A DNA stretch of 64,000 bases from a virus: UHGV virus genome UHGV-0076294; one strand, written 5' to 3'. Below are positions 5,165 to 54,912 of this stretch, one piece after another. Made by a program: the position numbers and the translations under genes. The notes under the pieces are model-generated. The model did not search any database. It was not told where the DNA came from and saw only the letters and a list, made by a program, of their open reading frames with translations. Position 1 is the stretch's first letter; the number at the start of each line of letters is the position of its first letter.

Positions 5165-6449
5165 CTTTGGCTTCTCTCAATTGTTTTTCTTTCTGGGCAC
5201 GTTCACGTACGCAACGAGGGCAATAACACATGCTATTATCGTGAAAATCTTTCACTGACGTCGTGCCCATTTTCTGTTTCCAATATTCCGCAACCATCAA
5301 TTTTGCAGTTGTCCAGCCGCATTGACGGCGTTCGGCGTGATAAGCTTTGCGATCTTCTAGCGTCCCTTCTCCATTCTCGTAAGATGCAGCCGCACAACTA
5401 CCACAAGCGTGCTTCATTGGACAACCTAAACAGGTTTCAGGATAGTTGGTATATTGCGTCTGAATCTCTTCCAGCAATTTCCCGTCATCTAAGCTAACGA
5501 ATTCCCGGCCAACTAATTCAAATACGGCAGAACGTGATGTTACGGTTGACATGAAACGGTTACAACCGAAGATCTTACGATCGAATCCTAAGCAGGTCAT
5601 GTGTGTTAACGTACCGCAGAACGGACGTAAACGTTCTGGATTCAAACGTACAGTATCGTTATACAATAATTGGTCGCGCCAGTTTGGTTCCCAGATAGTA
5701 TCAAAATCTAACCCGTCTGGAATGATGTGCGACAAGGTGTTACGTGGGTTGGTGTGTAAGCCCTTCTCAACCCAATAATCAACCACATCCATCATCTGCA
5801 ATGCGATTGAAGTAGCCATGCTCCGTGGCATAATGTCTTCGAAGGTTACGTTGCCGGAAATAGTTCCACCGCCAGTAATATCAATTAATGATTTCATTCC
5901 AGCAGCATAGAACGGTAACGTTTCCAACGTAAAGGTCGCTTTTACACCAAGTTCTGCAATACCGACTTCTTTTAAGTAATTATAGCCCCGCACAGCGGCC
6001 TCGTAAGATCCTTCACGAGTTGTTGTAAAAATCCGGTACTTATCGTGCGATTCGGGCAATCCATCAATAGACACCCCAATAGAAAGCCTGTCTTTCCAAC
6101 GTTCAATAATTTCTCTATTCAAAGGTCTATCTAACAATGTTCCGTTAGTAGAAATGCTAAACATAAACGGCCGATTATGTTTTTCGCATAACTCTTCTGC
6201 GGTTTCAAATGCCGCCATTAATAACTTAGGCTGCATAAACGGCTCGCCGCCGATAATGTCGATAACGACCTCGATGTTTGTCAGGTCTTTATCCCTTTCG
6301 AAACAGGCATGTAAAAAATCAACGATATCTGCCGCTTTGTTATTCCGAGGATACTTACGTTCGTAACAATACTCACAGTCTAGGTTACACGATAAATTTG
6401 TAACGATCTGATAAGTCAGTTGTTTAGGATAACTATTTTCTTGACTCAT
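5127..6449 (-). CDS. Radical SAM enzyme with C-terminal SPASM/twitch-like Cys-rich domain
   Basis: CNLDCEYC (CxxxCxxC) near N-terminus, GGEP motif; C-terminal CGTLTHMTC...GC and CLGCPMKHACGSC cysteine clusters typical of SPASM auxiliary Fe-S domains. Confidence 0.8.
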   Translation of the reverse strand: MSQENSYPKQLTYQIVTNLSCNLDCEYCYERKYPRNNKAADIVDFLHACFERDKDLTNIEVVIDIIGGEPFMQPKLLMAAFETAEELCEKHNRPFMFSISTNGTLLDRPLNREIIERWKDRLSIGVSIDGLPESHDKYRIFTTTREGSYEAAVRGYNYLKEVGIAELGVKATFTLETLPFYAAGMKSLIDITGGGTISGNVTFEDIMPRSMATSIALQMMDVVDYWVEKGLHTNPRNTLSHIIPDGLDFDTIWEPNWRDQLLYNDTVRLNPERLRPFCGTLTHMTCLGFDRKIFGCNRFMSTVTSRSAVFELVGREFVSLDDGKLLEEIQTQYTNYPETCLGCPMKHACGSCAAASYENGEGTLEDRKAYHAERRQCGWTTAKLMVAEYWKQKMGTTSVKDFHDNSMCYCPRCVRERAQKEKQLREAKDETNSDPQYYEA

Positions 6450-17223: not shown

Positions 17224-17239
17224 CGTAAAGACTCCTACT

Positions 17240-17280
17240 TTTTAAATAAAATGGATACCCCTCCCCATTACAGGGAGGGG
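17240..17280 (-). terminator. Hairpin terminator between large fibre genes (minus strand)
   Basis: cccctcccc-attaca-gggagggg; minus strand tail T-rich. Confidence 0.55.
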
Positions 17281-17318
17281 TTACCTACGGACACACAACT
17301 GCCCGCAGGCAGCCTGTC

Positions 17319-21524: not shown

Positions 21525-21537
21525 CAAAAAAATCTCC

Positions 21538-24500
21538 TTAATCGCGAATGATTACCGCCTGCACTTTATTGCTGGTGTCGATAAACGACATTACGCGCTC
21601 CTTATTAAGATAAGGAGGTATCGGTAACGCAGCATAATCCGCCAGGTTGTTATTAAATTCAGTTGCCACTAACGCATTAAGCGTTTCGGGGTCTGAACTG
21701 GCACCGGCCAATTCCATAACGCGCACACGATTTAATGAGGAATAGTTGCTAATATAGTCCAACAACGTACCATAGACTTTATTCGCAGTTGCACTGTCTC
21801 CCGCAGAACGGACGTCGGCACGGACCTCATCCTCATAAAGTCCCCCTAAACCGTAGTAAATAGGGGTATACGGATCGTTAACGATAGGTTCAATATTGAA
21901 GCCAGTTAAACGGTCGGTTAATGGGATTTTCTGCGTAGTTCCCCCTGCTGCCGTACAGCTTACATATTTGTCCGTCGCAGATAAATGCACCCCGACAGTA
22001 TACGCAGTCCCCGCTAAGGTCAGTCTTGCACTAAACGTTATTGCGTTGGTTGCACTACGGGTGTGGGTAAATGATACTACAGGTTGTAATGAACTCCACG
22101 GTGCAGGTGTAACACGTTTCGTTGGTGTGAAACCTAACACTACTGATTTCCCGCTACCGAAGTTCAAACCGAACCCTGCGTAACAATACTCACCGTTACT
22201 GTCAGTTAAACGATATCCGCGAGTGATAAGTAACGACAACCGCATAAACTCGCCATCGGTGTTTTTCCAACAACCTAAAATGGTTTCTAACACCGTGCCG
22301 GTTTTTGCGTTGCTTTCTGTTTCCCAACTTACCCGCATTCCTGCGTTCTTAAAAGCTGGGAACATGTTGTGGATAAACCCGTGAACGTTATCGCTTACCC
22401 CTTTCGCATCAAACACCCACTTCGACGCAAGCTGATCGTATTTCACACCATCGAGTGCTTTATATCCACCGCCAACCACATAACGCCAATCTGCCTCGCC
22501 ACGCACAACCGCTTGAAGTCCAGAAGCCCAGCAGGGCGCACCTACTGTTAAATTGCTTAACCCCAGCACTGCACGCGGAGCAGAACGCTGAATATGTGCG
22601 TTGTCATTAGCGACGTGGTCTTTCAGCTCACGGAAATCGCCTAACCGTGTCACGTTTCGGAGTTCCACTACGTCAACTTGGGAAAGTTCGTTAACAATAA
22701 GCTTCCCAACACGCGTCATGGTGTCGGTTTCAGCTTGATTGTAACTATCGTGGACGATATACATTGCTCTATTGTCGACGATATCAACAAAGATCCCTGC
22801 GTGGATTAACGTTTGTGGGTTTGTGAAACGTTCGGTAACGTTAACCGTCATTAACGGTACGTCATACGTCTCACCACCAACGAAATACGTTGAAGCGGGG
22901 AGTGTAAGCAGAATGTTATCCTTAACGGTAACGTCAATTAAGTCGTTACCGGACTTACCAAAGCGAATAATGTCAACGCGAGCACCCGAGTCAACGCCAC
23001 CGACGGTATTCTCCAAATCTTCAATCTGGGAAGTCTGCGCCATCACCACACTACCATCGAGTGCTAAAGTGGCATCATCCACTTCCAGACCGAATTTAAT
23101 CAGACCCCGTTTCGTGGTGTCTGCGTTCGCAACACCGAATACGGAAGACGGGTGTTGGTGAACCTTCGGTGAGTATTTGTCCAGCTCGGTCTGCTGTGCA
23201 ACAGAAATCGGTAAGTCAACGTCCGGGGTATTCGCAACGTTACCTAAACCAAAGGTAATTTTGTCGATAGTAACCGAACTGGTAAGCTGCATGTCGTTGA
23301 TGTACGACTTGGCGGCAACTAACTTACCGGTAAACTCTGCGTCCAGTTTTTCAATTAACGCAGGGGTTGCTGCGAGGTTTTCAGCCGTACCGAATTCGTC
23401 CGTTAACTGCCAGCAGGCTAACGTCGTGACGTCGTTGGCAACCGGAAGGATAAACGTTGCGACAAACGGCGACGCTTTAATCCCGCTACCAGTAAGTTCC
23501 ACTGTAGCTGTAGATGCACCGTAGAATAATCCCGTGCCGCCTGCGGTATTACCCGGCAAATACGGCGCTACCGTAGTGGGGTCTAAGAGTTTCTTACCAC
23601 GCCACAATAATCCACGATCATCAGGGTATAGCACAAGCTGGTTATCGCCCGCCTGTAACGTTACCGGGTTGTTACCCACGTTAACGTCAGTAGAACCTTG
23701 ACCGATGAACTTAATGGATTTCGGATCAACGACAAACTGGGCACCTAAACGTGTCTCGTCAACAACATCAGGTGCTTTCTTAATGGTAACCGTGTTACCT
23801 TTGTTTTGCGAACTAATGGTGACAGCATCAGCAACGTTGTTAATCCACGTTTTAAAATGATATTGATTTTCCAACGCTTCTAGCGCAGAATCCATGTTAT
23901 CAAAATTAATTCTGGCACTGTAAGTTTTACCGTTTACCGTAACGACAGCATCGAACACGTTCCCCGTGCGCTTCAACTGGAAACGTAATGAGAAATCGCT
24001 GTTAGGTATTGCCGGATCAGGAGCTTGAGAAATATACCTTACCTGCGGAACTGTACCAACAGTATTAAGGCTTAGCGAAACTTCAATAGAGATAGTATCG
24101 CCCCAGATTCCGGCTTTTATCTCGACAAACTTGCCAGCGTTTGTGCCCGAGTTCTCGTAAAACCGCATAATCGCGGAACCGACCGCCTCATTACCCGACG
24201 CAGTTTTTATACCAGTGGCAATAAAGTCAATATCTTGCAGGTTAGCGGGTACCGCATTAAAAGAAGCACTAAATCCATTCTTCGTTCCTGTGTAACGAAG
24301 CTCGCCGTGATACCTGTGACCACTACTAACATAGCTTTCGCTAAAATAAGGGCTCACGTATTTAGACATCGAAACCGGATCAACTTCTGTCGTGAACGAA
24401 GTAAAACCGGGCAGCGTTCCAATGGTTCCGTCGGCCGTTTTCGTAGTTGACGTGCGCAGTAGTTTCTTTTGCGCAGTCAATGTTTCTTGCGTTGGATACT

Positions 24501-25863
24501 TAGCATTAACATAATCTGTTAACTGCGGCTTCGTTTTTCCGTAAGCTAACGCTGTATCCGTCGCAATACCGTTCAACTCTAACGCACGGATCGGGCCCCA
24601 CGTGTCGCTATGCGGATTGTCCTTACGTGTAACGTGTTCGTGCGCAGGTGCGTTGCGATAGAGCTGTTCTACTAACTGATGGTACTTAACGATTAGCTGA
24701 TAAACGTCGTTACTTACGTCTGCTTCTGGCGCACCAGGTAACGCAAGGAATTGAGCGTAATCGTTTTCAGCCGCCCACCAGTTTAAGTTAACGTTGGTTT
24801 TGTATTTCAGCCACTTCGCAACATCCGTTTTGGTGTAACCTGCTGAGAATTCGTCTGGCGGTGTGTCAACGTTAAAGGTGTAGTCCATAGACTGTTTGTT
24901 GGTCTTCACCTCGATAACGTATACACCGTTACCCGGTTGACGAACAACGCTAAACGTTAACTCGCCTTTTAATTCATCGTCGGTCAAACCGTTGATTAAC
25001 GTATAATCATAATCAGTTGAACCGCTGCCTAACGCAACCGTCAGTCGTAGGCCGATTTTACGTTGTTTTAATTGGAGACGAAGGATACTTGCGCCACCGT
25101 TCGCGTAGCACAACATCCAATCGATTTGTTCGTTCGGATTAATACTCCCCATGTTCGGAAAAATAGCCGGGATACGGTATTTCATCGACAGGGAATATTC
25201 ATTTAACGTGGTGGTTTTGTACGTAACGGAGAAACGACGTTTAGCGGTATTGTAAGTATACCCACCTTTGTTGTCGTACGTTGCGTACTGTTCAGACGTG
25301 ATAACCGTACCATTAGCGCGATGCTCGATATCTAACGTGTTACGCGCAATCGGGTCTACCCGATTCACCACGTTACCTAACGAATCACCTAAGCCTGCAA
25401 TGGCTTGCATTAATTCCAGTTCACCTTTCCAGTTTTCCCAGTCGAACTGAATGTCGACCGGTGGAAAGTAAACATCGCCGATAACGGTATCCCATTGACA
25501 CGCAGACGGGTATTTATCTTTATTGAGTTCGCGTTCTGCGGTAATCTGTTCTTGGGTCGCTTCACCGCAACCTACGGCGTGGTAATCTACCGTGAAATTC
25601 GATTTGTATTTGTCGTTAACAATCCAAATCATCCCGTGCACGAGGTAGGCTGTGCGCAACATACCGGTCTCGTACGGGTGTGTAATAACGTAATCGTCGC
25701 CTAAGGTCAGTATTTTGCCGCCGCTCTTGACCACCAGGGATGTGGTGAAAAAAGGGGCGTGGGCAGGTACCAACATTCGGTACTTCGTACCAATGACGGC
25801 GACCGCTTCACCGGTTATTTTATTCCCCGGTTCTTTGAAGTGTGGGTCTAGGACGACAGCCAT
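21538..25863 (-). CDS. Large structural protein, tail fibre/spike candidate (1441 aa)
   Basis: SD aggagtag; N-terminal module PAHAPFFTTSLVV...GDDYVI shared with neighbours. Confidence 0.5.
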   Translation of the reverse strand: MAVVLDPHFKEPGNKITGEAVAVIGTKYRMLVPAHAPFFTTSLVVKSGGKILTLGDDYVITHPYETGMLRTAYLVHGMIWIVNDKYKSNFTVDYHAVGCGEATQEQITAERELNKDKYPSACQWDTVIGDVYFPPVDIQFDWENWKGELELMQAIAGLGDSLGNVVNRVDPIARNTLDIEHRANGTVITSEQYATYDNKGGYTYNTAKRRFSVTYKTTTLNEYSLSMKYRIPAIFPNMGSINPNEQIDWMLCYANGGASILRLQLKQRKIGLRLTVALGSGSTDYDYTLINGLTDDELKGELTFSVVRQPGNGVYVIEVKTNKQSMDYTFNVDTPPDEFSAGYTKTDVAKWLKYKTNVNLNWWAAENDYAQFLALPGAPEADVSNDVYQLIVKYHQLVEQLYRNAPAHEHVTRKDNPHSDTWGPIRALELNGIATDTALAYGKTKPQLTDYVNAKYPTQETLTAQKKLLRTSTTKTADGTIGTLPGFTSFTTEVDPVSMSKYVSPYFSESYVSSGHRYHGELRYTGTKNGFSASFNAVPANLQDIDFIATGIKTASGNEAVGSAIMRFYENSGTNAGKFVEIKAGIWGDTISIEVSLSLNTVGTVPQVRYISQAPDPAIPNSDFSLRFQLKRTGNVFDAVVTVNGKTYSARINFDNMDSALEALENQYHFKTWINNVADAVTISSQNKGNTVTIKKAPDVVDETRLGAQFVVDPKSIKFIGQGSTDVNVGNNPVTLQAGDNQLVLYPDDRGLLWRGKKLLDPTTVAPYLPGNTAGGTGLFYGASTATVELTGSGIKASPFVATFILPVANDVTTLACWQLTDEFGTAENLAATPALIEKLDAEFTGKLVAAKSYINDMQLTSSVTIDKITFGLGNVANTPDVDLPISVAQQTELDKYSPKVHQHPSSVFGVANADTTKRGLIKFGLEVDDATLALDGSVVMAQTSQIEDLENTVGGVDSGARVDIIRFGKSGNDLIDVTVKDNILLTLPASTYFVGGETYDVPLMTVNVTERFTNPQTLIHAGIFVDIVDNRAMYIVHDSYNQAETDTMTRVGKLIVNELSQVDVVELRNVTRLGDFRELKDHVANDNAHIQRSAPRAVLGLSNLTVGAPCWASGLQAVVRGEADWRYVVGGGYKALDGVKYDQLASKWVFDAKGVSDNVHGFIHNMFPAFKNAGMRVSWETESNAKTGTVLETILGCWKNTDGEFMRLSLLITRGYRLTDSNGEYCYAGFGLNFGSGKSVVLGFTPTKRVTPAPWSSLQPVVSFTHTRSATNAITFSARLTLAGTAYTVGVHLSATDKYVSCTAAGGTTQKIPLTDRLTGFNIEPIVNDPYTPIYYGLGGLYEDEVRADVRSAGDSATANKVYGTLLDYISNYSSLNRVRVMELAGASSDPETLNALVATEFNNNLADYAALPIPPYLNKERVMSFIDTSNKVQAVIIRD

Positions 25864-36492: not shown

Positions 36493-36528
36493 CTTTTTAC
36501 ACCACGCTCCGTGAATATGGAGGTGGAC

Positions 36529-39033
36529 ATGTTAAAAGTTGAACGTATTGTACTTAAAGGGTTTACCGGAATGGGATTACACGAAATCGAAACCTTCGAT
36601 TTTACTATCCATTCCCCAACCACCATTATCCTCGGTGGTAACGGCTGCGGTAAGACCAGCTTACTGTCCGTGTTTCTACCTATCGCACCTTCGAAATCCG
36701 AATTCCGTGACGGGGGTTCTTACACCAACATCTGTTTGGTTAACGACCATCGTTACAAATTTAAGGTTGCACGTAAAGGCAACTCACTGGTTTGCGATAT
36801 CGAGAACCTGACGACGGGCACCAAAATCGTCGAACAAGGTAATGCGAAAGTGTATAACTCTCGTGTAGAAGAAATCACGGGCATTACAAAAGAGATTAAA
36901 GAGTTACTGAACGGAGAAGTGCTTTTAACGGATGCAGGAACGGAACTGCGTCGTAAGTGGTTCTACCGTTTAAGTACGTCAGACTTAACTTACGCGTTAG
37001 GTTTTTATCAACGTTTACGAAAAAACCTGACGATGTTAAACGGCGGTATTGAAATCACCAGCCGCAAGATTGCAGAGTTGCGTACCCGCGTGATTGATAA
37101 CGAGGAAGAACGTCAGCAGTTAGCAACACGGTTAAAAGCATTAGAAGTGGATTTACGTGAAGTCAACAAACAGATTGAACAACTGCCTGGTCTGAATCGC
37201 GACGTTACGGTGGCAACGATTCAATCGCTATTGCTTAAAATCGAAGCACCGATTAATGCTATCTTGGAACACCGTGGCGGATTACCTACGGAAGAACGGG
37301 TAGAGGAAGCACGACGCGTTGAAGCCACTGCCCGTGAAGCGGTGGTCTCTGCTGAAACAGAACTGTCCATGCTAAACAAAGATTTGTCTTTGTTGATGGA
37401 CGAGTCTACCCGCCAAGATTACCTGATGCGGAATCACGAAGGGTTAAAGAACACGGTTGCAAAACTGCGTGAGTTATTAAAGCAGTGGGACACCGAACAT
37501 CTTTTCCCTGAACTGTTTGCGGAGACCGTTAACATCGACCAGCTTAAAGCAGCGACGGATGCGCGTGTCTGGGGACAACGTTTAGGAACAACGCTGGACG
37601 CCATTAAATCGACAGAACGGTTGAACGTACTGGAAGAGAAACTGTTGACCTTAGACCAAAACTCATCTGGGTTGCGTGACCGACTACAACGCGTTGAAAA
37701 CGTATTGCAGAACCTCAACCACGAACGGAATCACTATTTGGAAACCGCCGAGGTTGATTGTCCGCAGTGTCAATTTAAATTCCGTCCGGGCGTGCGTCGT
37801 TCTTTGCCTGAATTGGAAGAAGCCATTCGTGGACAAATGGAGCAACGTAATACGTTACAGACTCAGCTTGATTCCGTATTGCGAGACCGTACGGAATTAG
37901 AGTCGGACGTTAATTACATGCGTCAAGTACGAGAAATCGTTTTAACATACTCGAAAGACCCGGTATTGAGTTTGTTCTTTAAACGTCTCCAGGAGCGGAA
38001 TGTCTTTACGGATAACCGCAGTCAATTCGGCAGTTTGTGTGCAGAGTTCGATCGTGAACTTTATTCCGCAATTGAATACCACGAAACGAAACACCGTTTT
38101 GCTAAAGCGGAAAAAGAGTGGGCAAACGCAGTTGCAGCGGTAGGTAACGTTGACGGTGCACTACAGCAGAAAATTGCCTTCCAGCAGGAGCGTTTGGGTA
38201 AGGCGACAGAAACGCTCTCAGAGCGCCGTAGAGAGCACGCAGTTGCTAATGATACCTTTTGTTATCTAAACGAACTTAAAGCCACTGTAGACAATTTTAA
38301 TGCGGTTTTTGAGCGTTTAGAGAACGATGTTAAGGTAACATTAACCAATACGGTGGTCGAAACGTTATTAAACGCCCGAGAAAACAAGTTGGATGCGTTC
38401 ACCACAGCACGGGAACGGTACCGTCAGATGGAAAACGAGCTCAACCAACTTACTGCGTTAGAAAAGGAGTTATCGGATTTACAGGCACAGCAATTCAATA
38501 ACAAACTGATGATTCAAGCGTTCTCGCCCGAGAAAGGGGTATTACGCAAATACTTCTACAACGCTATCGTGAGAATCACAGAATTAATGACGCGCTATAT
38601 CGAACAAGTCTGGACCTACCCTATGCGGGTCATGCCGTGTGACTTAACCGATGGTGACTTAGACTACACGTTCCCAGTGCAGTTAAAAACCCATCCTGAA
38701 CCGGTACCTGACGTGCGGAAAGGGTCGAAAGCACAGCGAGCCATCTTTAATTTGATGTTTCGTTTAACCGCTTACAAAGCCCTGAAACTTCATCAGTATC
38801 CGCTACTGTTGGATGAACCGTCAGAAGGGATGGATGAGGAACACCGAAATAACCTCGTCGGGTTTATTAAAACCCTGGCGAATTCCGGTGAGTTCTCTCA
38901 GTTACTGGTGGTATCTCACGAAGCAGAAATTCATTCAAAACTTAACGAAGCCGCATACTGTGTTATTGAACCTGAAGGCGTAACACTGCCTGCGGTATAC
39001 AACGAGGGAGTAAAAATTGTCTACGCAAACTGA
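36529..39033 (+). CDS. Rad50/SbcC-like recombination ATPase (T4 gp46-like)
   Basis: Walker A GGNGCGKTS near N-terminus, long coiled-coil middle with CPQC zinc-hook-like motif, C-terminal Walker B LLLDEPSEGMD and following SHE; SD ggaggtgg before ATG 36529. Confidence 0.75.
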   Translation: MLKVERIVLKGFTGMGLHEIETFDFTIHSPTTIILGGNGCGKTSLLSVFLPIAPSKSEFRDGGSYTNICLVNDHRYKFKVARKGNSLVCDIENLTTGTKIVEQGNAKVYNSRVEEITGITKEIKELLNGEVLLTDAGTELRRKWFYRLSTSDLTYALGFYQRLRKNLTMLNGGIEITSRKIAELRTRVIDNEEERQQLATRLKALEVDLREVNKQIEQLPGLNRDVTVATIQSLLLKIEAPINAILEHRGGLPTEERVEEARRVEATAREAVVSAETELSMLNKDLSLLMDESTRQDYLMRNHEGLKNTVAKLRELLKQWDTEHLFPELFAETVNIDQLKAATDARVWGQRLGTTLDAIKSTERLNVLEEKLLTLDQNSSGLRDRLQRVENVLQNLNHERNHYLETAEVDCPQCQFKFRPGVRRSLPELEEAIRGQMEQRNTLQTQLDSVLRDRTELESDVNYMRQVREIVLTYSKDPVLSLFFKRLQERNVFTDNRSQFGSLCAEFDRELYSAIEYHETKHRFAKAEKEWANAVAAVGNVDGALQQKIAFQQERLGKATETLSERRREHAVANDTFCYLNELKATVDNFNAVFERLENDVKVTLTNTVVETLLNARENKLDAFTTARERYRQMENELNQLTALEKELSDLQAQQFNNKLMIQAFSPEKGVLRKYFYNAIVRITELMTRYIEQVWTYPMRVMPCDLTDGDLDYTFPVQLKTHPEPVPDVRKGSKAQRAIFNLMFRLTAYKALKLHQYPLLLDEPSEGMDEEHRNNLVGFIKTLANSGEFSQLLVVSHEAEIHSKLNEAAYCVIEPEGVTLPAVYNEGVKIVYAN

Positions 39034-43109: not shown

Positions 43110-44045
43110 ATGACTTTTCCATCTGAAGTAATTTACGAACTGGCTAACACACTACGTCGTCACTATAGCGCCAAGATGATGCAAACCCATGTGGGTGCGA
43201 CCGCTGACTTTTTGCGCGGCCATTTCCTGGGCAATAACCCGCCATCTATTACACAGGAAACGGTTTTCTCTATCGATCGTGCCTCCTTAATTCTTCCAAT
43301 CGACCACGCCATTGCGGTTCAAGAAGGGAATACGTTCAACTTCTCTATGGGAATGCGACGTTCGTCTATCGCCGTTAACTCAAACATGGGAAATAACCCG
43401 TCTTTCGTACAGAACACGCACTCTGCAGAACACGGTAACTGGTTCGTTGTTGTAGAACAAGGCGTGAATCAGTATGACGTTGTTGCAGCTCGCGATGAAT
43501 CTTTCTTTGAGCTGGGACAGATTTCTCGCCGTCGTGAAATTGCGCTTGACCTACGTCAAGGTAATATCGGATTAAGTGGGACCAGTGTCTATTTCATCCT
43601 GAGCAGTTGGGCACATGTAAGTTATGTGCTGAAAAATGCCAGTCCGACGTTCCACGCAACGACGGTAGAATTTCGTGGCCTTGAGATAGAATATCGTGAC
43701 GAAGAAGAAACGGTACCTGGCACAGAGGTCGCCATTTGTGAAAACTACGATGATCTGAAATCTGTGCTTGTTAAGCGTGATGTTTTCGAATCGTTAAACT
43801 TGGATTTCCCCGGCGATGAAAATGAAATATCCGTAGCTGACCTGGTAGAAACATTGTGTCAGAAAGACCAAGCTAACGAAATTAGCGACGAAGAAGCAGA
43901 ACTCTTCCAAGTTCAACAACTCATCAGCAAGGTTATCGGCGGTCAGGAAATTGTTGACACCCTTATGGCTTTACCACCGAAGAAACGTACTCAAAAGTAC
44001 ATTCGTGAACTGGTTCTTGAAAACCTGGGTCAAGCCAAAAAGTAA
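43110..44045 (+). CDS. Hypothetical protein, paralog of 44107-44655
   Basis: SD aagagga; N-terminal similarity to next gene; followed by terminator. Confidence 0.55.
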   Translation: MTFPSEVIYELANTLRRHYSAKMMQTHVGATADFLRGHFLGNNPPSITQETVFSIDRASLILPIDHAIAVQEGNTFNFSMGMRRSSIAVNSNMGNNPSFVQNTHSAEHGNWFVVVEQGVNQYDVVAARDESFFELGQISRRREIALDLRQGNIGLSGTSVYFILSSWAHVSYVLKNASPTFHATTVEFRGLEIEYRDEEETVPGTEVAICENYDDLKSVLVKRDVFESLNLDFPGDENEISVADLVETLCQKDQANEISDEEAELFQVQQLISKVIGGQEIVDTLMALPPKKRTQKYIRELVLENLGQAKK

Positions 44046-44106: not shown

Positions 44107-44655
44107 ATGTTTCCATCATCTGAATATTTAACCCACCTGGCTTACGGTATTCGTCGAGGTTCTGTTTTCCGTACACGTTTAAAGGACGTAAATTTCCTGG
44201 CTAATTTCTTATTTAACCATTTGGGAGATGGAACTAACGTTTACAAAAAGATCACCACAACACAACTTTATTCCCTTATAGCGGCGTCTGAAATTGTACC
44301 TACAGATATTTGGCGATTCAAGCGTTATAACGGAGATATTACGATCAGTTTTCTTGATCATTCTCCTATTACCGTTGAAATCGTCGAACGCGTTGATATT
44401 AATAGTGAAGTGTCTGGTTGGAAGATTCTGTTTGATTGTGGCAATCGTTATGCGGTACTTGGCTCCTCTGATGAACGTGACTTCCCATTCGACAAACCCT
44501 ACTACTACCTCAGCGAAGATGATTTCCCGGATAAAGAATCCAATATCTTTTTAAACGGGGATACCGTTTACTTCATTTTTCGTACTTGGAACGATGTTGC
44601 TGCTATGATTGCTCAAGGTGTCATCGATTACCGTAAACTAGAAGTCGACATTTAA
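44107..44655 (+). CDS. Hypothetical protein, paralog of 43110-44045
   Basis: SD aggag; followed by bidirectional terminator. Confidence 0.55.
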   Translation: MFPSSEYLTHLAYGIRRGSVFRTRLKDVNFLANFLFNHLGDGTNVYKKITTTQLYSLIAASEIVPTDIWRFKRYNGDITISFLDHSPITVEIVERVDINSEVSGWKILFDCGNRYAVLGSSDERDFPFDKPYYYLSEDDFPDKESNIFLNGDTVYFIFRTWNDVAAMIAQGVIDYRKLEVDI

Positions 44656-44661
44656 AATAAA

Positions 44662-44700
44662 AGCTACCCTACTCCTTTTCGGGAGTAGGGTAATTTCTTT
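44662..44700. terminator. Bidirectional terminator between convergent genes
   Basis: ccctactcc-ttttcg-ggagtaggg followed by taatttctttt. Confidence 0.65.
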
Positions 44701-45323
44701 TAGTTAACTAACCCGTTAGCTTTAAGAATCTCTAACATCTGGTTGTTTAACTCTTTTAATTTTTTGTTTTCGTTTGTCAACGAAGTAACTTGTTCTGACA
44801 ACGGAATAGCCTCTCGAATTTTCCTTTTCCGAGCCGCTTCCATTTGCAGGTGTTGCTCCTCCGTCACTTTCCCTTCATACTCCATGGTCGTGATTTCGAC
44901 TTTCGGGTCGATACCCAACGTACGGGTAAGAATATCCGAAACGTCTTTAGTCATCACCGACACATCTACATAATCCGGTACAAACGATAAGTCCACCACC
45001 ATCACATTACGCTGGTACGCGATTCCCGATAAACCGGGGCACGATTCTACGTAAGTGTCGGGGATATAAACGACTTGACCATCGCGTGATTTAAACGTAA
45101 GTATTGACGCGTTAACAGTGGCATCAGCAAGATATTCTTCTCGCTCCAACCCAACGGGCTTGTAATACTCGTTGTAAACATCAATATTCTGACGTACTAA
45201 ATCTGGGAAGGTACGTGATGCCTCCACCGTGAAGATAACCGTTTCGGCTAACGTAAACGGTGTTTTTACCTTAAATAAACCCGTTGTGTTAACGGGAACC
45301 AAAAGAGGTAAACGCGTAGCCAT
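44700..45323 (-). CDS. Hypothetical protein
   Basis: ORF on minus strand ending at bidirectional terminator; C-terminal coiled-coil-like KKLKELNNQMLEILK. Confidence 0.5.
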   Translation of the reverse strand: MATRLPLLVPVNTTGLFKVKTPFTLAETVIFTVEASRTFPDLVRQNIDVYNEYYKPVGLEREEYLADATVNASILTFKSRDGQVVYIPDTYVESCPGLSGIAYQRNVMVVDLSFVPDYVDVSVMTKDVSDILTRTLGIDPKVEITTMEYEGKVTEEQHLQMEAARKRKIREAIPLSEQVTSLTNENKKLKELNNQMLEILKANGLVN

Positions 45324-47688: not shown

Positions 47689-47693
47689 CAACG

Positions 47694-47733
47694 CCTCCTG
47701 TATCCTTCGGGGTACAGGAGGTATTTTCTTTTT
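47694..47733 (+). terminator. Rho-independent terminator
   Basis: cctcctgtatcc-ttcg-gggtacaggagg followed by tattttcttttt. Confidence 0.65.
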
Positions 47734-47775: not shown

Positions 47776-48510
47776 ATGACATACCCGAAAACGATTCAAC
47801 CCACCTTACCGACGCTGGTAATTGGTGCTGACGCAGAAACCAAATCACTGCGTCCTGATGCGTATTTGTTAACCACAGGCTTAGTTGCCTTTGACGTACC
47901 GACTTTAAAAATGGTAGGGTCGTCGTATATGCGTATTGATCCTAACGACCCTAAAGCAAAAGCTGTGTTCCACGAAGACCCGCAAACCGTGGGGTGGTGG
48001 GAAGGTAAAGGAGAACCTGAATACGCGCCGTCTCGTGAAGCCTACACGGAAGCATGGGGTGGTACAACTCCTATGCCGGAAGCGCTGTGGGCAATGCGGA
48101 AGTGGTTAGACGAAATCACCGGCAAACACAATTTCGTTATTACCATGCGTGGGCCAGATTTCGATTCTCCGATTTTCATGAACGCGTTCGCACAATGTGA
48201 CGTCCCTCCAGGTAAGTTCCGTAAGTTTAGTGCGTTAGACAGCGACCGCACCGCAGAGCGTTTAGCGCTGGCGTTTGGTTTTGAGCCTGACTTGACCGTT
48301 GAGCAAGTTTACTGGACGCGGGGTAAACCGGCATTTGAACACCATGCTTTGTGGGATGCCGCGAAAGAAGCGTACACCACCGCACGTATTTATCACCTTG
48401 CACTGATTACCCGCGAGTATGGGTACGAACGTGCTAAAACCTGTCACGAAGAACTGAAAACCGGTGAGTATATTCCACCACAGATTCGTGATCAGTTAAC
48501 CAGGGATTAA
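47776..48510 (+). CDS. DEDDh-type 3'-5' exonuclease (DexA-like)
   Basis: SD aaaggagc; Exo I-like GADAET near N-terminus and Exo III-like HHALWDAAKEAYTTARIY near C-terminus. Confidence 0.6.
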   Translation: MTYPKTIQPTLPTLVIGADAETKSLRPDAYLLTTGLVAFDVPTLKMVGSSYMRIDPNDPKAKAVFHEDPQTVGWWEGKGEPEYAPSREAYTEAWGGTTPMPEALWAMRKWLDEITGKHNFVITMRGPDFDSPIFMNAFAQCDVPPGKFRKFSALDSDRTAERLALAFGFEPDLTVEQVYWTRGKPAFEHHALWDAAKEAYTTARIYHLALITREYGYERAKTCHEELKTGEYIPPQIRDQLTRD

Positions 48511-48512
48511 GA

Positions 48513-50024
48513 ATGAAGAACGTTGATGTTGCTGTACTTTATACCGACGGTAGCCATTTAACCTCACCGATGGGAACAGGCGGTGGGATTCACGGCTACC
48601 TGTTTAACAAGGAAGAGATTGTTGACGGTGGCGTTTATCGCCACCCTACCATTCCCGAAGGGATTACGACCTCTGGTTATCGTCAGATTAACAAAGAGGA
48701 AAAACTTCCTGCGTTACCAGACTCTGTTGAGTTCGTAGACTGTGTTATTCCGGTACCGAAACACCACCACTCTGATGTTGCAGAGATTGTTGCTTTTTTA
48801 ACCGTTTTCGAAAAAGCACCGTTCGTTGCAAAAAACTACGTTATCTATATCGACGCGTCTTACGTTGTGAATACGTTTAACGATTGGATTGACGGTTGGG
48901 CTAAGCGGGACTGGCGACGGGCTGATGGAACCCCTATCGCGAACCTTGAACTGGTTCAACGGATGTGGGAAATTAAGAAACGTCTGAAGAGAGAAGGGAA
49001 AGGGATTCGTGTTCTTAAAATCAAAGGACACTCTGGTCACTACGGTAACGAACGGGCTGACGGGCTGGCACGAAAGGGATCATCCATCTCTGCGCACGGA
49101 GAAGGTTTAGATTATCAGGCGTACTGGTCAGCAGACGAAATCCCGGAAGAACAGCAGGAAGAAATCGTCAGTGAAGGCGTTAACGTTGCCGCGTTTCCTG
49201 ATATTTGCGTAACTAAGTTCTGTTACCCGATGGTAAATGAGCAACACCCTACGGTTAAAGTAAACGGTGAAAATCTCTATTACATGTTCGGGGGTAACCA
49301 CGCAAAACAGAAGGACGATATTGTCTTCGTCGGAAAATACATCCCTGATGCGCAGTTTTGTGTGATGTTTACACGTGAACCGTGGACGAACGTTTACGAT
49401 TTGGTTAACGCCCACGCTGCTAAAGCCTGGGAGGGCGTACCACGTTTGCGTCAGTTTGACCCTATCGCTGTTGTGTTCAACCTGTTCGTAAAACGTAAGA
49501 AGTTTGCGGAAGCAGCGGCTAACGGTATCCCGGTTGACAAAATGCACTTTAGCGAAGACAAAAACCTGTGGATGTACGAAGACTTGTCTATCAGTCGTAT
49601 TCTGCGTCCCGCGTTATTGTCATACCGCTGCGTAACCATTCGTGATGAACTGGCAGAGTGGCTGCGTGACTGTTTGGAAGGCAAATCGAACGTTGTCTTA
49701 AATGACATTACCGATTTGCTTTATGACGAAAAAGGTAAACCCACCAAAGACTTTTACCGAAACGTGGATAAAGGGTTTGACGTTTCCATTAAAATTCCTA
49801 ACGGGAAGGTTGACGTTAAAACTATTCTGACGCGTGCTATCGACATACCGACACGTACGGAAATCAACCGTATCAAAGAACCAAACGGGAGATTCTACAT
49901 TGCCGTACGACGTCCAGAACGTCAGTATATTGAATATGCGTTAGTGTATATCGGTGAGAAGTATCATGGTCTGTGGTGTGGTTATTATTCAAACAAACGA
50001 ATATTGACCGATAAGGAACTTTGA
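48513..50024 (+). CDS. RNase HI-like domain protein with about 300-aa C-terminal extension
   Basis: LYTDGS, IDASYVVN, and KIKGHSGHYGNERADGLARKG match catalytic motifs of type 1 RNase H; C-terminal two-thirds has no recognisable motif. Confidence 0.7.
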   Translation: MKNVDVAVLYTDGSHLTSPMGTGGGIHGYLFNKEEIVDGGVYRHPTIPEGITTSGYRQINKEEKLPALPDSVEFVDCVIPVPKHHHSDVAEIVAFLTVFEKAPFVAKNYVIYIDASYVVNTFNDWIDGWAKRDWRRADGTPIANLELVQRMWEIKKRLKREGKGIRVLKIKGHSGHYGNERADGLARKGSSISAHGEGLDYQAYWSADEIPEEQQEEIVSEGVNVAAFPDICVTKFCYPMVNEQHPTVKVNGENLYYMFGGNHAKQKDDIVFVGKYIPDAQFCVMFTREPWTNVYDLVNAHAAKAWEGVPRLRQFDPIAVVFNLFVKRKKFAEAAANGIPVDKMHFSEDKNLWMYEDLSISRILRPALLSYRCVTIRDELAEWLRDCLEGKSNVVLNDITDLLYDEKGKPTKDFYRNVDKGFDVSIKIPNGKVDVKTILTRAIDIPTRTEINRIKEPNGRFYIAVRRPERQYIEYALVYIGEKYHGLWCGYYSNKRILTDKEL

Positions 50025-50692
50025 TGCTGATTGTTTTTAGTCAAGCGTTATCGATGGCACCGAGTTATATCCAGATACGCTTTTCAGCAATTGCGCGTCA
50101 GCAGTGGGGCTTTAAAGCCCCCTATTCTGACGACCACTATACACTCGGTGAAGTAGCACTTGAACTTGCTTTACGTTCATTGTGGGAAATCATTGCATTG
50201 TACAATGCAGGTTGTGATATACCGAAAGATTGTTTCCCACAGCGGGTGATTGCACAAGGCACTACGAACACTTACGGTAATCCGGCATTGGTGGAAGAGT
50301 GCTTAGGCTACGCTAACCAGTCTGGGGAACTGCAACATAACTTTAATCTGGTGATTAACAAAGTCTGGAGTGAGCTGGAAAGCTACCCTGAAAAGATTAT
50401 CTGGTTTGATCGTAACCAATTCGTTAAGGAGGTGGCCAGTAAACGACCCGTACGTTTAGTTGCCTTAAAGCCCACCGACCTTGATTTGAAACAAACCTAT
50501 CCCTTCCCAGAGGAAATTCGACTTTCTCCAGAAACCGTAGGTCACACTATTTTCAAACAAGGTGACGCCTGGATACTTCCTCACGATCTAGACCGTTTCC
50601 TGCTCAACTCCGATCAGATTCACTCCGGCTATGATTCTCTCGTAAAAGAGTTTCACATCGATCCCTATTTCGCTAAAAACTTTCTTAGATAG
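50024..50692 (+). CDS. Hypothetical protein
   Basis: SD aagga before ATG 50024, overlapping previous stop. Confidence 0.5.
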   Translation: MLIVFSQALSMAPSYIQIRFSAIARQQWGFKAPYSDDHYTLGEVALELALRSLWEIIALYNAGCDIPKDCFPQRVIAQGTTNTYGNPALVEECLGYANQSGELQHNFNLVINKVWSELESYPEKIIWFDRNQFVKEVASKRPVRLVALKPTDLDLKQTYPFPEEIRLSPETVGHTIFKQGDAWILPHDLDRFLLNSDQIHSGYDSLVKEFHIDPYFAKNFLR

Positions 50693-50706
50693 ATATTATT
50701 CAGGTG
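50691..50706 (+). promoter_or_regulatory. AGATATTAT-type motif (candidate promoter)
   Basis: tAGATAGATATTATTCAGGTG upstream of 50730 gene. Confidence 0.3.
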
Positions 50707-50729
50707 TAGAACCCTCGGAGTTAATCACC

Positions 50730-51467
50730 ATGTTGAAAGTTTATGTCCCTCAATTACAACGTATTAATCCCTCGTTGTTCGAGGGATTCTTTTATAAAAT
50801 TTGGCCACAATACTTCAATGAACACCTGAAAGACTCAAAATGGTCATCTGTCCAAGGAGAATTCTTTTACACCGCACAATCAGCCTGTACAAATGTCTTT
50901 ACCCACCTCATCTCTGAGGTTATTGACGCTGTCAACACCAACCGAAACTTTGACCTTCGTGACGTCATAATAGATCTCTCAGCGATCTTCGATAACTACG
51001 ATTGCGATGACGCAGTATTCGAACATTTCTCCTCTGAAGATGTGTGGGAGGCCGTTTATCAATGGCTAGAATACTACGTGAATTTTCTACTTTCCTCGAA
51101 CATGTTAGAAAATTACAATAAAGCACTCTTTCCCATTTATAACGACTTAATGAACGTTAAACTGACAAAGAATCTCGTTGGTTTTTGGTATTCGACCTAC
51201 GACGCTGAAAGCAGGTTGTGGGAAAAAGAAATGATCGCTTACGGCATCGAGCGCGGCGATTATGATGAATTATATCGATGTTATTGGCCATTCAATCATT
51301 ACGAAAAAGGGTGTCAAGGCGATCCGTATTTGTGGTCTTTTTATTTCTGTAATCAGACTGGTGTTATTTATCTTGAAGACACCGGTGTACGAATCCCTAA
51401 CGGTACTGATGTAACATACTGCCAATTACGTAAAGACCGGGCTGACGCCATTTATCAGGATTATTAA
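50730..51467 (+). CDS. Hypothetical protein
   Basis: ORF preceded by conserved AGATATTAT motif and SD ggag. Confidence 0.5.
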   Translation: MLKVYVPQLQRINPSLFEGFFYKIWPQYFNEHLKDSKWSSVQGEFFYTAQSACTNVFTHLISEVIDAVNTNRNFDLRDVIIDLSAIFDNYDCDDAVFEHFSSEDVWEAVYQWLEYYVNFLLSSNMLENYNKALFPIYNDLMNVKLTKNLVGFWYSTYDAESRLWEKEMIAYGIERGDYDELYRCYWPFNHYEKGCQGDPYLWSFYFCNQTGVIYLEDTGVRIPNGTDVTYCQLRKDRADAIYQDY

Positions 51468-51468
51468 C

Positions 51469-52011
51469 ATGAAATTACTTATCGATTTTTCTCTGAGTTC
51501 GTCACGCGACAGGCTAAATAAAATACTTACTGAAATGCGAAGTAAAGTGACGTTAGAATTGCACGATGCGATAGCGGTATACGAGAGAAAGCTAACGAAA
51601 GAGAACAACGGGGAGACCGTGGTGATCTTAGACGCTAAAGCGATGGTGGATTTTCTGGTAGACGTTTTAGAAAGACGGATACACGCAGTGATAGAACGAC
51701 CCTACCTGGTTCGTGTGACCGACCCAGACACTACGGTAGATTCGATACTGGAAAAAGCATTCGTTGACGCAGCACACTATTTACAAAATCATTCCCCAGA
51801 CGATTTCGAAACGATTTACGTTGGTGTTATACAGCAACAGAATGCTGAAACCAACATAGTCGATACTGTGTGCTGGAGCGATATTCTTACTAATGAAACC
51901 ATGTCTCGCATTCGAGATATCTTTATTGAAAATTTGGCATTAGTAAAAAGGGTGTGTAGTTCCGAGATTATTTATTTATCATCGAAATACGAAAAACCTA
52001 AAGGGGTATAA
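51469..52011 (+). CDS. Hypothetical protein
   Basis: Start immediately after previous stop (taacATG). Confidence 0.5.
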   Translation: MKLLIDFSLSSSRDRLNKILTEMRSKVTLELHDAIAVYERKLTKENNGETVVILDAKAMVDFLVDVLERRIHAVIERPYLVRVTDPDTTVDSILEKAFVDAAHYLQNHSPDDFETIYVGVIQQQNAETNIVDTVCWSDILTNETMSRIRDIFIENLALVKRVCSSEIIYLSSKYEKPKGV

Positions 52012-52013
52012 CC

Positions 52014-52538
52014 ATGGATATTTTAATTCAGCTTCGTAAGAAAACAACCATTGCCACGCCGATAGCGTTAGAGGAGAAAATCTCTGGCGCGGTTGCACGC
52101 AAGCTCTGTGGTGCTCACGGCTTTAGCAGTCATCAGGAACAGGTCGTTACTGCCGCCACATTACACAACTTACGGCACACAGTACATTACTGTTTAGCTG
52201 ACAACGTCACCATCACTCTTGATGATGGCGCAGCAGCCGACCAACTGCGTCGTGAAATTGACCACAAGATCGGCGTTTATAAAAGACGTTTTGATCGTGC
52301 CTGTGCACGTTTAACCGATGACAAGGAATTATGGAAACGTTTGAAACTTGAAATTGAGTATGCGGCGCAGCGTTACGGGATTGGCGGTACCGAACCGTTG
52401 CTGTCCGAACAAGAAATCATGTTAGCAATCGAAGTTTACATCACCGTTTGTATCGCCATCCTGAAAGAAACCGACTACGAAATTACAAAAGCGTTGTTAA
52501 ACACCGCAGACAGACTCACCCCAATTTTAGGACAGTAA
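52014..52538 (+). CDS. Hypothetical protein
   Basis: SD aaagggg; tightly packed. Confidence 0.5.
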   Translation: MDILIQLRKKTTIATPIALEEKISGAVARKLCGAHGFSSHQEQVVTAATLHNLRHTVHYCLADNVTITLDDGAAADQLRREIDHKIGVYKRRFDRACARLTDDKELWKRLKLEIEYAAQRYGIGGTEPLLSEQEIMLAIEVYITVCIAILKETDYEITKALLNTADRLTPILGQ

Positions 52539-52539
52539 A

Positions 52540-53025
52540 ATGAACTTAAATGCAATTATCAATCTCTCTAATAGCGACATTGTCCACGAGTTTCTGAACC
52601 ACTGCGATCGCACAGAACAGTCTATCCGTAACATGTTAGCTCCGAAAACAGTGGATGCCATTTGGATAGCTTCACAGGCAGCGGGCGTTATCGTTGCAAG
52701 ATATCGCGCGACATTACTAATGAGTCTGGACATTTTCTTCGATCGACCAGGGCCTATTACATGGACTTCTATCGGACGTCGGCTTTATGACATACGTATC
52801 GAAACCCTACGCTCGATAATTAATGGCTGGCACAACGGGTATATGCCTGACGTAATAGTACCCTACACTGTTCCCGAATGGCGACGCTTTTATAGTCAGA
52901 TTTGGAGTAATGAAAGCGTTTATCATGAAATAGTGGCTCTTATCAGTGCTGACCAAAGCCAACTTGCATACCAGCTATGGGAGTGGCTAAAAGCTAATTA
53001 TCCTGATTACGTCAAAATCGACTAA
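52540..53025 (+). CDS. Hypothetical protein
   Basis: Start 1 nt after previous stop; followed by terminator. Confidence 0.5.
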   Translation: MNLNAIINLSNSDIVHEFLNHCDRTEQSIRNMLAPKTVDAIWIASQAAGVIVARYRATLLMSLDIFFDRPGPITWTSIGRRLYDIRIETLRSIINGWHNGYMPDVIVPYTVPEWRRFYSQIWSNESVYHEIVALISADQSQLAYQLWEWLKANYPDYVKID

Positions 53026-53030
53026 TAGAC

Positions 53031-53063
53031 ACCCTAGCTTCGGCTAGGGTTACTTTATTTTTA
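53031..53063 (+). terminator. Rho-independent terminator
   Basis: ccctagc-ttcg-gctaggg followed by ttactttattttt. Confidence 0.65.
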
Positions 53064-53084: not shown

Positions 53085-54017
53085 ATGTATTTGTACAAAA
53101 GTAAAAAAGTAAAAGGTATTAAAGACTGCCTTAGACAAATGGGGAGTCAGCATCTAGAAAATGTCATGGAAGAAAATCAAACAAAAGAAAATCCTGTCTC
53201 GAAATGGATAAAAAAGAATCGTAATCATCTAACCAATAGCTTTATACCGTATAATGAAGATTTAGGTCTCAAAGATCCACGTTCCCTTCACGCTCAAACA
53301 TTGGCAATTGGATGGCTATACGGCGGGGCTTCCTTAATATCCGATCGAGCACTTAGAGAACTTGTTTTTGAGACTGAGATGCCCAGTAAATTCCCTGAAG
53401 AATGGTTGGACTTTATACCTACTTGGACTGTGGCAATCGATGTAGGTAAAGAGGATGAGACTTTCTTTCTCGGTTATCGAAAAAATGGGAAGAGAAGGTT
53501 TATTATAATTGCTACAAATACTGATTACGGGTTAACAGAAGGCGTTACCACGATTGCCACTTGTTCGTTAGAGCTTCGTAGTGCAGGAAACGGACTTGTG
53601 GAAATCGACTATGCCGACGGTGTGGAGAACGAACAAGAAAAGATGCTATGGTTATCTCTGGCCAAAGCCGCCACATCGATGATATTTCTGTGTACGCTAA
53701 TCCCACCTAATCTCAAAACGTCTTACAATGACGTTAAGTTCAAAGAAATCAAAAAGAACGGCAGTATTAGCTACGAAGTCAAACCTCGTGAACGTGATGT
53801 TAAAGTGGATATCACACCAGGACAAGTAAAATATCTAAAAGGATTTAACACCGACTTGAAAGCCATGCAGGGTATCAAACACGCTAAAGCTGCGCACATT
53901 CGTCGTGCCCACTGGCGTAGATACTGGGTTGGTCCAAGAAACGGTGAAAGAAAAAGAAAACTTTGCTGGATTCCACCGACATTTGTTCGCGGCTACGTAC
54001 CCCACACGCAAGACTAG
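53085..54017 (+). CDS. Hypothetical protein, paralog of 54028-54912 (C-terminal AHIRRAHW...W.GP...W.W..PTF motif)
   Basis: SD aggagaa; C-terminus AAHIRRAHWRRYWVGPRNGERKRKLCWIPPTFVRG. Confidence 0.55.
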   Translation: MYLYKSKKVKGIKDCLRQMGSQHLENVMEENQTKENPVSKWIKKNRNHLTNSFIPYNEDLGLKDPRSLHAQTLAIGWLYGGASLISDRALRELVFETEMPSKFPEEWLDFIPTWTVAIDVGKEDETFFLGYRKNGKRRFIIIATNTDYGLTEGVTTIATCSLELRSAGNGLVEIDYADGVENEQEKMLWLSLAKAATSMIFLCTLIPPNLKTSYNDVKFKEIKKNGSISYEVKPRERDVKVDITPGQVKYLKGFNTDLKAMQGIKHAKAAHIRRAHWRRYWVGPRNGERKRKLCWIPPTFVRGYVPHTQD

Positions 54018-54027
54018 GAGAATTATA

Positions 54028-54912
54028 ATGTTAAGACGCAGAATTTATGGAGACACGCTTCGACGTATTAGTGAAGCTATAGAGACTGCACACAAAGACT
54101 TGTTTGGTCTGAAGGAAGATCGTTTTCTAACGTTTGTCAGGGAACACAAGAGGCAACTTCCTGTAACCTTTCTGCCCGTTAACGACCCAACGTACCGTGT
54201 GTTCGGCACCACCAAACAGGTGCCGTATTCTATTCGCCAATCGTTAGGTTTGGGCTGGCAATACGCAGGTATTGAAATTATCTCTGATAAAGAGTTGATG
54301 GGACTACTTGCAGACACAGAACGTTTAACGGATATTCCGTACGCGTGGATTGAAGCAATTCCTTCATTCACCTTTTCCGTGACTGTAAAGATTAACGAAC
54401 TACCCGCTACGCTCTTTATCGGTCGTCGTAAATTCGAAGGTGAGGAAGTATTGTTCGTTTTACGATGGGTGGAGATAAATCAGCGGCACTGTTGGTCAAC
54501 CAAGATTTATCGGTTCAACAGAAAGGCAGATGACTTTGTTAGTTTAGAGCCTTACTTTGCTAACGAGTCAAAGGACGAGGAACTTCTGGATGAGGTACAT
54601 ATCGGTTTATATCTTTCCTCGCGGGTGAAGAAATCGGAACGCGAGAGACGGGAATACCGTGGTAGAACGACACGTTACGTACCTGATACAGAAATCCTCC
54701 CACGCAGAGAACCTGTCGTCGTTGACGTAAGTCCAGTACAACGCGAAGACTTAGAAAAACAACGCAGGGAAGGCAGGAGAATCTGTTTAACGCCTCATCG
54801 CGCAGCACACATACGCAGGGCTCATTGGAAACGGGTCTGGTGTGGGCCAATGACAGGACCACGCTGGCAGGAGTGGCGATGGATTGCACCCACCTTTATA
54901 TCTGGTTTTTAA
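54028..54912 (+). CDS. Hypothetical protein, paralog of 53085-54017
   Basis: SD aggagaa before ATG 54028; C-terminus AAHIRRAHWKRVWCGPMTGPRWQEWRWIAPTFISGF. Confidence 0.55.
   Translation: MLRRRIYGDTLRRISEAIETAHKDLFGLKEDRFLTFVREHKRQLPVTFLPVNDPTYRVFGTTKQVPYSIRQSLGLGWQYAGIEIISDKELMGLLADTERLTDIPYAWIEAIPSFTFSVTVKINELPATLFIGRRKFEGEEVLFVLRWVEINQRHCWSTKIYRFNRKADDFVSLEPYFANESKDEELLDEVHIGLYLSSRVKKSERERREYRGRTTRYVPDTEILPRREPVVVDVSPVQREDLEKQRREGRRICLTPHRAAHIRRAHWKRVWCGPMTGPRWQEWRWIAPTFISGF

Follow-up and report, generated by a model that had tools for sequence, protein, structure and literature searches.

The gene considered here occupies positions 48513-50024 on the plus strand of a 64,000-nucleotide stretch of the UHGV virus genome UHGV-0076294, the whole of which we call the window. 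It appears in the list of open reading frames (ORFs) as a complete coding sequence, with an ATG start and 503 amino acids (aa) plus a stop codon, and its full-length similarity and its conserved position among neighboring genes identify it as the ortholog of ΦKZ155 (Nlp2), one of the core proteins of the Chimalliviridae. A previous description, made from the letters and the ORF translations alone (the sequence-only reading), had delimited the same frame correctly and had seen in it a ribonuclease (RNase) HI domain fused to a C-terminal region with no recognizable motif, the whole being taken for a replication or repair nuclease with an added targeting or interaction domain. Although it had been called notable, the fusion is already known in ΦKZ155 (Gerovac et al., Nature 2025), and the 503-aa protein adds another member to the family.

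The N-terminal domain (aa 1-195, 48513-49097, plus strand) is, on profile, motif and alignment evidence, a type-1 RNase H whose catalytic set is complete and which has an insertion peculiar to the family. It scores 73.7 bits against the Pfam family PF00075 (RNase_H; cut-off 25.8, E=2.3e-20), the profile search assigning it to no different fold, and a phmmer search of PDB sequences with the N-terminal part retrieved E. coli, Thermus and human RNase H1. The motifs named in the sequence-only reading, TDGS at aa 11, IDASYV at aa 113 and KGHSGHYGNERADGLA at aa 171, are all present, and the catalytic residues D12, E91, D114, D183 and H173 align with D10, E48, D70, D134 and H124 of E. coli RNase HI. 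A profile score above threshold, the D-E-D-D set with its histidine, and an RNase H fold are therefore found together, which places the domain among the type-1 RNases H. Its basic-protrusion region contains W125, W129, W134, G139, P141 and N144. Because the NCBIfam equivalog for bacterial RNase HI (NF001236) gives 67.4 bits, under its cut-off of 160, the domain is best assigned to a divergent phage lineage and not to host-type rnhA.

D12 and E91 are 79 residues apart, compared to 38 for the corresponding residues in E. coli, so the insertion of about 40 aa that had been noticed earlier is real. Alignment, an AlphaFold2 (AF2) model and conservation place it at aa 32-72 (48606-48728, plus strand), about 41 aa between strands beta2 and beta3, and the model shows it well ordered, with a predicted local distance difference test score (pLDDT) of ~90. 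The long D-to-E spacing is a family-wide property, with a median of 83 in the 92 homologs, 20-58% identical to the 503-aa protein, that we used as a conservation sample throughout, and the insertion holds a near-invariant G55-Y56. Three homologs (P0124, P0161 and P0070) are variant architectures of the family: two have an I-TevI-type DNA-binding domain inside the beta2-beta3 insertion, and in the third, which keeps the C-terminal domain, Pfam detects no RNase_H domain and a Macro domain stands at the N terminus.

The RNase HI domain is followed by an acidic interdomain linker (aa 196-235, 49098-49217, plus strand; isoelectric point (pI) 4.05), in which aa 209-221 are predicted to be disordered (AF2 pLDDT <50), and then by an alpha/beta domain that runs to the end of the protein (aa 236-503, 49218-50021, plus strand). 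Modeled alone, aa 200-503 give a pLDDT of 88.8 and a predicted template modeling score (pTM) of 0.85, and the models show two domains, each folded with confidence, and between them a flexible linker of acidic composition. Compared with cellular type-1 enzymes such as E. coli RNase HI and human RNase H1, the phage protein has gained both the 41-aa insertion and this C-terminal domain of ~270 aa. Human RNase H1 has an extra domain as well, but that domain is N-terminal and binds hybrids, whereas the one found here is C-terminal and unrelated to it.

Orthology with ΦKZ155 and the surrounding genes

Residues 1-503 of the protein align with positions 2-496 of phrog_3265 ("ribonuclease", profile length 496) at E=1e-167, an end-to-end match that takes the observation of this gene out of the range of chance, and BLASTP aligns aa 5-493 with PHIKZ155 at E=8e-33. 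When the C-terminal 303 aa are searched by themselves, the only matches in the phage collection are PHIKZ155 and proteins of further nucleus-forming phages, PhiPA3, Goslar, PCH45 and RSL2 among them. The best full-length protein matches are Erwinia phage Asesino gp226 (66% identity) and proteins of Salmonella SPN3US-like phages (64%), while full-length matches at ~25% identity reach Phikzvirus (25% over 97% of the length), Noxifer, Desertfox and Serratia jumbo phages. No match was found when the locus was compared by megablast with GenBank phages, so there is no close cultured relative at the DNA level.

The order of genes in ΦKZ is also kept. A gp157-like virion protein gene on the minus strand (E=2e-48), the gp155-like gene under study, a gene for a gp152/Nlp1-like RecA/UvsX protein (E=2e-46) and a gp149-like gene for a virion RNA polymerase beta subunit (phrog_3233) make up a block that is syntenic with gp157-gp155-gp152-gp149. 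The 503-aa protein shows both full-length two-domain homology to the ΦKZ155/Nlp2 family and the conserved position of its gene within this core block. With ΦKZ155 (PHIKZ155, AAL83056.1; gp176 in ΦPA3; phrog_3265) it shares the full-length two-domain architecture, the catalytic residues, the C-terminal motifs D-I-T and D-x-P-x-R, and the block with gp157-, gp152- and gp149-like genes. The two proteins differ in being only 25% identical, the one described here being 21 aa longer, and in their immediate neighbors, which are gp156/156.1 and gp154 in ΦKZ, whereas in the window the gene is preceded by a DEDDh exonuclease gene and followed by an unrelated one encoding 222 aa.

An identical 503-aa protein with the same neighborhood occurs on near-complete metagenomic contigs of 222-230 kb from many samples (loci L004-L007, ENA), and according to the index of the collection the protein is present in 104 of its blocks. 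These occurrences point to a jumbo phage of ~225 kb that is widespread and uncultivated. Because of its protein-level relatives, its ΦKZ gene order and the size of these contigs, the window is best assigned to a Chimalliviridae-type jumbo phage related to Asesino and SPN3US, and not to a T4-type phage, the frame in which the sequence-only reading had placed it. Asesino, the nearest cultured relative, is reported to be nucleus-forming, according to a title cited in PMC12908238.

The change of frame alters what should be expected of the gene. T4 RNase H, the implied point of comparison, is likewise presumed to remove RNA primers, but it belongs to another phage group and is a flap endonuclease (FEN)-type 5'-3' nuclease, with a FEN/PIN-like fold unrelated to RNase HI. 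An RNase HI fold had for this reason been called notable, whereas the phiKZ-like ("group 1") jumbo phages all carry RNase H1 (Iyer et al. 2021; PMC7824862), so its presence in the window is expected. The gene is an ordinary one for the group: it is found in every nucleus-forming jumbo phage, and work published in 2025 had already described its architecture and main phenotypes.

Directly upstream, as the sequence-only reading had said, is a gene for a DEDDh-type, Rv2179c-like 3'-5' exonuclease (47776-48510, plus strand; PF16473, E=2.8e-12; phrog_255) with the motifs D19-x-E21 and H189-x4-D194. Its stop codon lies 2 nt ahead of the RNase H ATG, and the same exonuclease-RNase H order is seen in Asesino gp225/gp226. 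This adjacency is confined to the SPN3US/Erskinevirus-like clade, which includes Asesino, and was not detected in ΦKZ by tblastn. The idea that all phages of the group use this enzyme as a stand-alone proofreading exonuclease was considered and rejected: outside the SPN3US/Erskinevirus-like clade, tblastn finds it only in small phages that are unrelated.

The downstream gene (50024-50692, plus strand) encodes a 222-aa protein matching phrog_9472. The RNase H stop codon overlaps its ATG (TGATG), gene calls on the metagenomic contigs agree with this arrangement, and the overlap suggests translational coupling. The candidate identification of this gene as a PHIKZ154 counterpart was rejected, since there is no similarity. 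Upstream of the exonuclease gene, at 47693-47732 on the plus strand, lies a hairpin resembling an intrinsic terminator, with a 13-bp stem, a UUCG-type loop and a T tract, which is the strongest site in the region in a terminator scan; a second terminator-like hairpin, with a UUCG/TTCG-type tetraloop, is at 53031-53050 (plus strand). Together with the 2-nt spacing and the overlapping stop and start codons, the two hairpins suggest a putative, tightly coupled transcription unit of about 47776-53025, containing the exonuclease gene, the RNase H/Nlp2 gene and five small genes.

Several other genes in the window were noted along the way. Adjoining the gp157-like virion protein gene is one for a 207-aa protein (44700-45323, minus strand; Pfam DUF7194, E=1.7e-70; phrog_3241), and the adjacent ORFs at 43110-44045 and 44107-44655 (plus strand) have visibly similar N-terminal translations and may be another local paralog pair. 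Tandem paralogs of phrog_6160 at 53085-54017 and 53905-54912 (plus strand) share the C-terminal motif AAHIRRAHW[RK]R.W.GP...PPTF; as listed, these two ORFs overlap by ~110 nt, and the true start of the second is probably farther downstream. Three consecutive giant genes on the minus strand (12040-25863; 1727, 1402 and 1441 aa) code for virion structural proteins, paralogs of one another that cross-match the same PHROG families (7449, 8078, 7557 and 2163). The window also has genes for a radical SAM protein (5127-6449, minus strand; phrog_1802) and an SbcC-like nuclease subunit (36511-39033, plus strand; phrog_77).

Functional data from the ΦKZ155 family

Gerovac and colleagues placed ΦKZ155 in the core genome of the Chimalliviridae and demonstrated that in vitro it is a bona fide RNase H that cleaves RNA in RNA/DNA hybrids, an activity abolished by the D102N substitution (PMC12571901). 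In our alignment, D102 corresponds to D114 of the 503-aa protein. Knock-down of ΦKZ155, or of gp176 in ΦPA3, leaves the phage nucleus immature and blocks genome amplification, with ChmA levels and nucleus-dependent transcription unaffected (PMC12571901). The nuclease-dead D102N protein gives full complementation, for plaque formation as well as nucleus maturation (PMC12571901), and the essential function of the ortholog thus lies outside catalysis. ΦKZ155/Nlp2 is made after nucleus formation and imported via PicA/Imp1, and Kokontis et al. describe Nlp2 as a nuclear cargo whose import requires specific Imp1/PicA surface residues (bioRxiv 10.1101/2024.03.27.586873). By analogy, the protein encoded in the window would be expected to cleave RNA/DNA hybrids, to be imported into the nucleus and to have a nuclease-independent role in genome amplification.

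These data bear directly on the proposal, made in the sequence-only reading, that the protein acts essentially as a nuclease in primer removal or repair, its C-terminal part being a mere targeting appendage. Three things would suit such a role: the intact and strongly conserved catalytic site, the in vitro cleavage of RNA/DNA hybrids by the ortholog (PMC12571901) and the neighboring 3'-5' exonuclease gene. The full complementation by nuclease-dead ΦKZ155 (PMC12571901) argues strongly in the other direction, the adjacency to the exonuclease gene is specific to one clade, and T4 is no valid comparison for phages of this group; we consider an essential nucleolytic role very improbable. The ortholog data do broadly agree with two parts of the earlier proposal, namely a role in replication and the presence of a domain that is not a nuclease, while the emphasis that it implicitly laid on the nuclease does not, for the ortholog, survive the D102N result.

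Distribution, conservation and predicted fold of the C-terminal domain

In agreement with the earlier description, searches of Pfam, NCBIfam, PADLOC and PDB sequences found no match for the C-terminal part, although thresholds were permissive and a family profile was also used. Pfam searches with 22 C-terminal domains at E values up to 10 returned only scattered spurious matches (Rotavirus_VP7, DUFs), comparison of the C-terminal profile with PDB sequences returned only noise (E of at least 0.5), and PADLOC found no defense-system match for the whole protein or for its C-terminal part. None of the papers that we searched, the one on PicA among them, gives this domain a fold or a function. A search of 1.84 billion representative proteins with the C-terminal profile matched 840 clusters at E<=1e-3 and 436 at E<=1e-10. 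Among the matches listed, nearly all are proteins of 450-560 aa with the domain at the C-terminal end, and the Pfam RNase_H domain is present in 87 of the 92 sampled family members. The domain occurs essentially only in the RNase H architecture.

This distribution is relevant to the suggestion that the domain serves mainly for protein-protein contacts with the nuclear shell or the import machinery, docking on PicA/Imp1 or acting in a checkpoint that licenses nucleus maturation, and is not a replication factor. The dependence of Nlp2 import on specific Imp1 surface residues (bioRxiv 10.1101/2024.03.27.586873) and a peripheral punctum of green fluorescent protein (GFP) both favor it. A domain found almost only behind RNase H, however, is not a general import tag common to other nuclear cargo, and knock-down stops DNA amplification while nucleus-dependent transcription continues (PMC12571901). 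Replication failure alone could account for the small nucleus, and 270 aa with an invariant polar motif exceed the needs of a docking signal. A module devoted mainly to the shell or to import therefore seems to us quite unlikely.

We inspected conservation across the same 92 homologs. The RNase H catalytic residues are retained in 86-91 of them, which places catalysis under purifying selection, although it is dispensable in the laboratory assay. In the C-terminal domain the most conserved polar residue is T400, present in all 92 sequences, followed by R448 (89/92). T400 belongs to a D398-I399-T400 motif (49704-49712, plus strand), for which the ΦKZ155 equivalents are D377 and T379; D398 itself is kept in 83 sequences, with glutamate in six more. 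G274 (87/92), P366 (86/92), G261 (84/92), D444 (79/92), K275 (77/92), D279 (74/92, with nine further sequences having glutamate) and H263 (70/92) complete the set. Domain pI and charge across the family were uninformative, the median pI being ~6 for both domains.

Such a pattern could mean that the C-terminal domain is an enzyme, or binds a small ligand or a nucleic-acid end, in which case the protein would be essential for this second activity, and any likeness to DNA clamps would reflect only a shared beta-alpha-beta-beta-beta architecture. T400, R448, D398, D444, K275, D279 and H263 are conserved among sequences as little as 20% identical to the 503-aa protein, and in the model they lie at strand ends and helix N-termini, which are typical places for an active site. 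The weakness of the clamp fold matches described below points the same way, and this phage group has no recognizable primase (PMC7824862), so that some of its enzymatic activities have no gene assigned to them. There is, on the other hand, no sequence-family match for the domain that would identify an activity, and we regard a second enzymatic or ligand-binding function as unlikely.

The closest structural matches that we could find for the C-terminal model are DNA clamps. In the ranking for this model Hus1 scores 5.9 (176 residues aligned), Ddc1 and Rad9 5.8 each, the African swine fever virus (ASFV) sliding clamp 5.3, the DnaN beta clamp 5.2 and gp45 5.0, with archaeal PCNA (4.8), PF-8 of Kaposi's sarcoma-associated herpesvirus (KSHV; 4.7) and UL44 of human cytomegalovirus (HCMV; 4.3) lower down. 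In an independent full-length model the same clamp proteins rank beneath the RNase H matches, and a Foldseek search of the PDB put 9-1-1, PCNA and PF-8 first, none of them significant. Four times in the model a helix leads into a beta meander, an arrangement that a two-domain clamp monomer could have. In terms of ranking it is established that clamps are the nearest known fold of the predicted structure; the domain may itself be a clamp-fold protein, though the resemblance is weak, if consistent.

Comparison with known clamp-fold proteins (PCNA, Hus1/Rad9/Rad1, beta clamp, T4/RB69 gp45, UL42, UL44, PF-8 and BMRF1) shows a similar size, about 270-280 aa, and, in the model, a similar helix-then-beta-meander order in about four repeats. 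The conserved polar motif, in contrast, is atypical of clamps. We know of no clamp loader in this phage group, and herpesvirus-type processivity factors require none. PCNA recruits RNase H2 and FEN1 in cells, which provides a functional precedent for covalently pairing a nuclease with a clamp. According to Iyer et al., the group-1 jumbo phages are without DnaG or AEP primases and without a classical sliding clamp (PMC7824862), and in the paper on PicA we found no clamp for phiKZ-like phages. It is tempting to see in the C-terminal domain a highly diverged DNA-clamp-fold module, the "missing" clamp of these phages fused to RNase HI, although we hold that identification to be doubtful.

A proposed tethering role in genome amplification

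We favor the explanation, at a probability of roughly 0.55, that the protein is a ΦKZ155/Nlp2 ortholog in which an RNase HI domain is coupled to a C-terminal tethering module, and that this module provides the essential, non-catalytic function. The RNase H domain would remove primer or R-loop RNA, or would recognize RNA/DNA hybrids, at replication sites. The C-terminal domain would do the essential job, as a non-catalytic tether to DNA or to the replisome, and perhaps would tether a polymerase as well. Since its predicted fold is most like those of DNA clamps and processivity factors, it may partly replace the classical sliding clamp that is absent from the group, a step that, taken by itself, we put forward only tentatively. 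A clamp-like version of the tether would fit both the group's want of a classical clamp and the arrest of replication on knock-down, and a clamp-fold processivity or tethering factor, if that is what the domain proves to be, would explain why genome amplification needs the protein but not its nuclease activity.

Several observations weigh against this explanation, and especially against its clamp-like form. The functional data all come from ΦKZ and ΦPA3, whose proteins are only ~25% identical to the one in the window. The near-universal retention of the RNase H catalytic residues implies that catalysis matters in nature, and an invariant threonine with a conserved set of aspartate, arginine, lysine and histidine suggests a site for catalysis or specific binding rather than a plain clamp. 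The best Foldseek match has an E value of 5e-3, with probabilities of at most 0.41 and a template modeling (TM) score of ~0.2. No PCNA, DNA_pol3_beta, gp45, Rad9/Hus1/Rad1 or herpesvirus PAP match appeared in the permissive Pfam searches with the 22 C-terminal domains, and the profile search of PDB sequences gave no link to a clamp family. Alignment of the C-terminal halves and quarters with hhalign gave no internal repeat, the one apparent match being an artifact of overlapping slices.

The interest of this otherwise ordinary gene lies in the role of its C-terminal domain and in the nuclease-independent licensing of genome amplification. Replication in the Chimalliviridae is poorly understood, as these phages have no recognized primase and no classical sliding clamp. 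To this the present analysis adds a family-wide map of conservation and a weak but consistent lead toward the clamp fold. If the resemblance to clamps is true, it would supply a concrete and testable mechanism for how the ΦKZ155 family supports genome amplification, with D377, T379, D427 and R431, in ΦKZ155 numbering, as the residues on which to test it.

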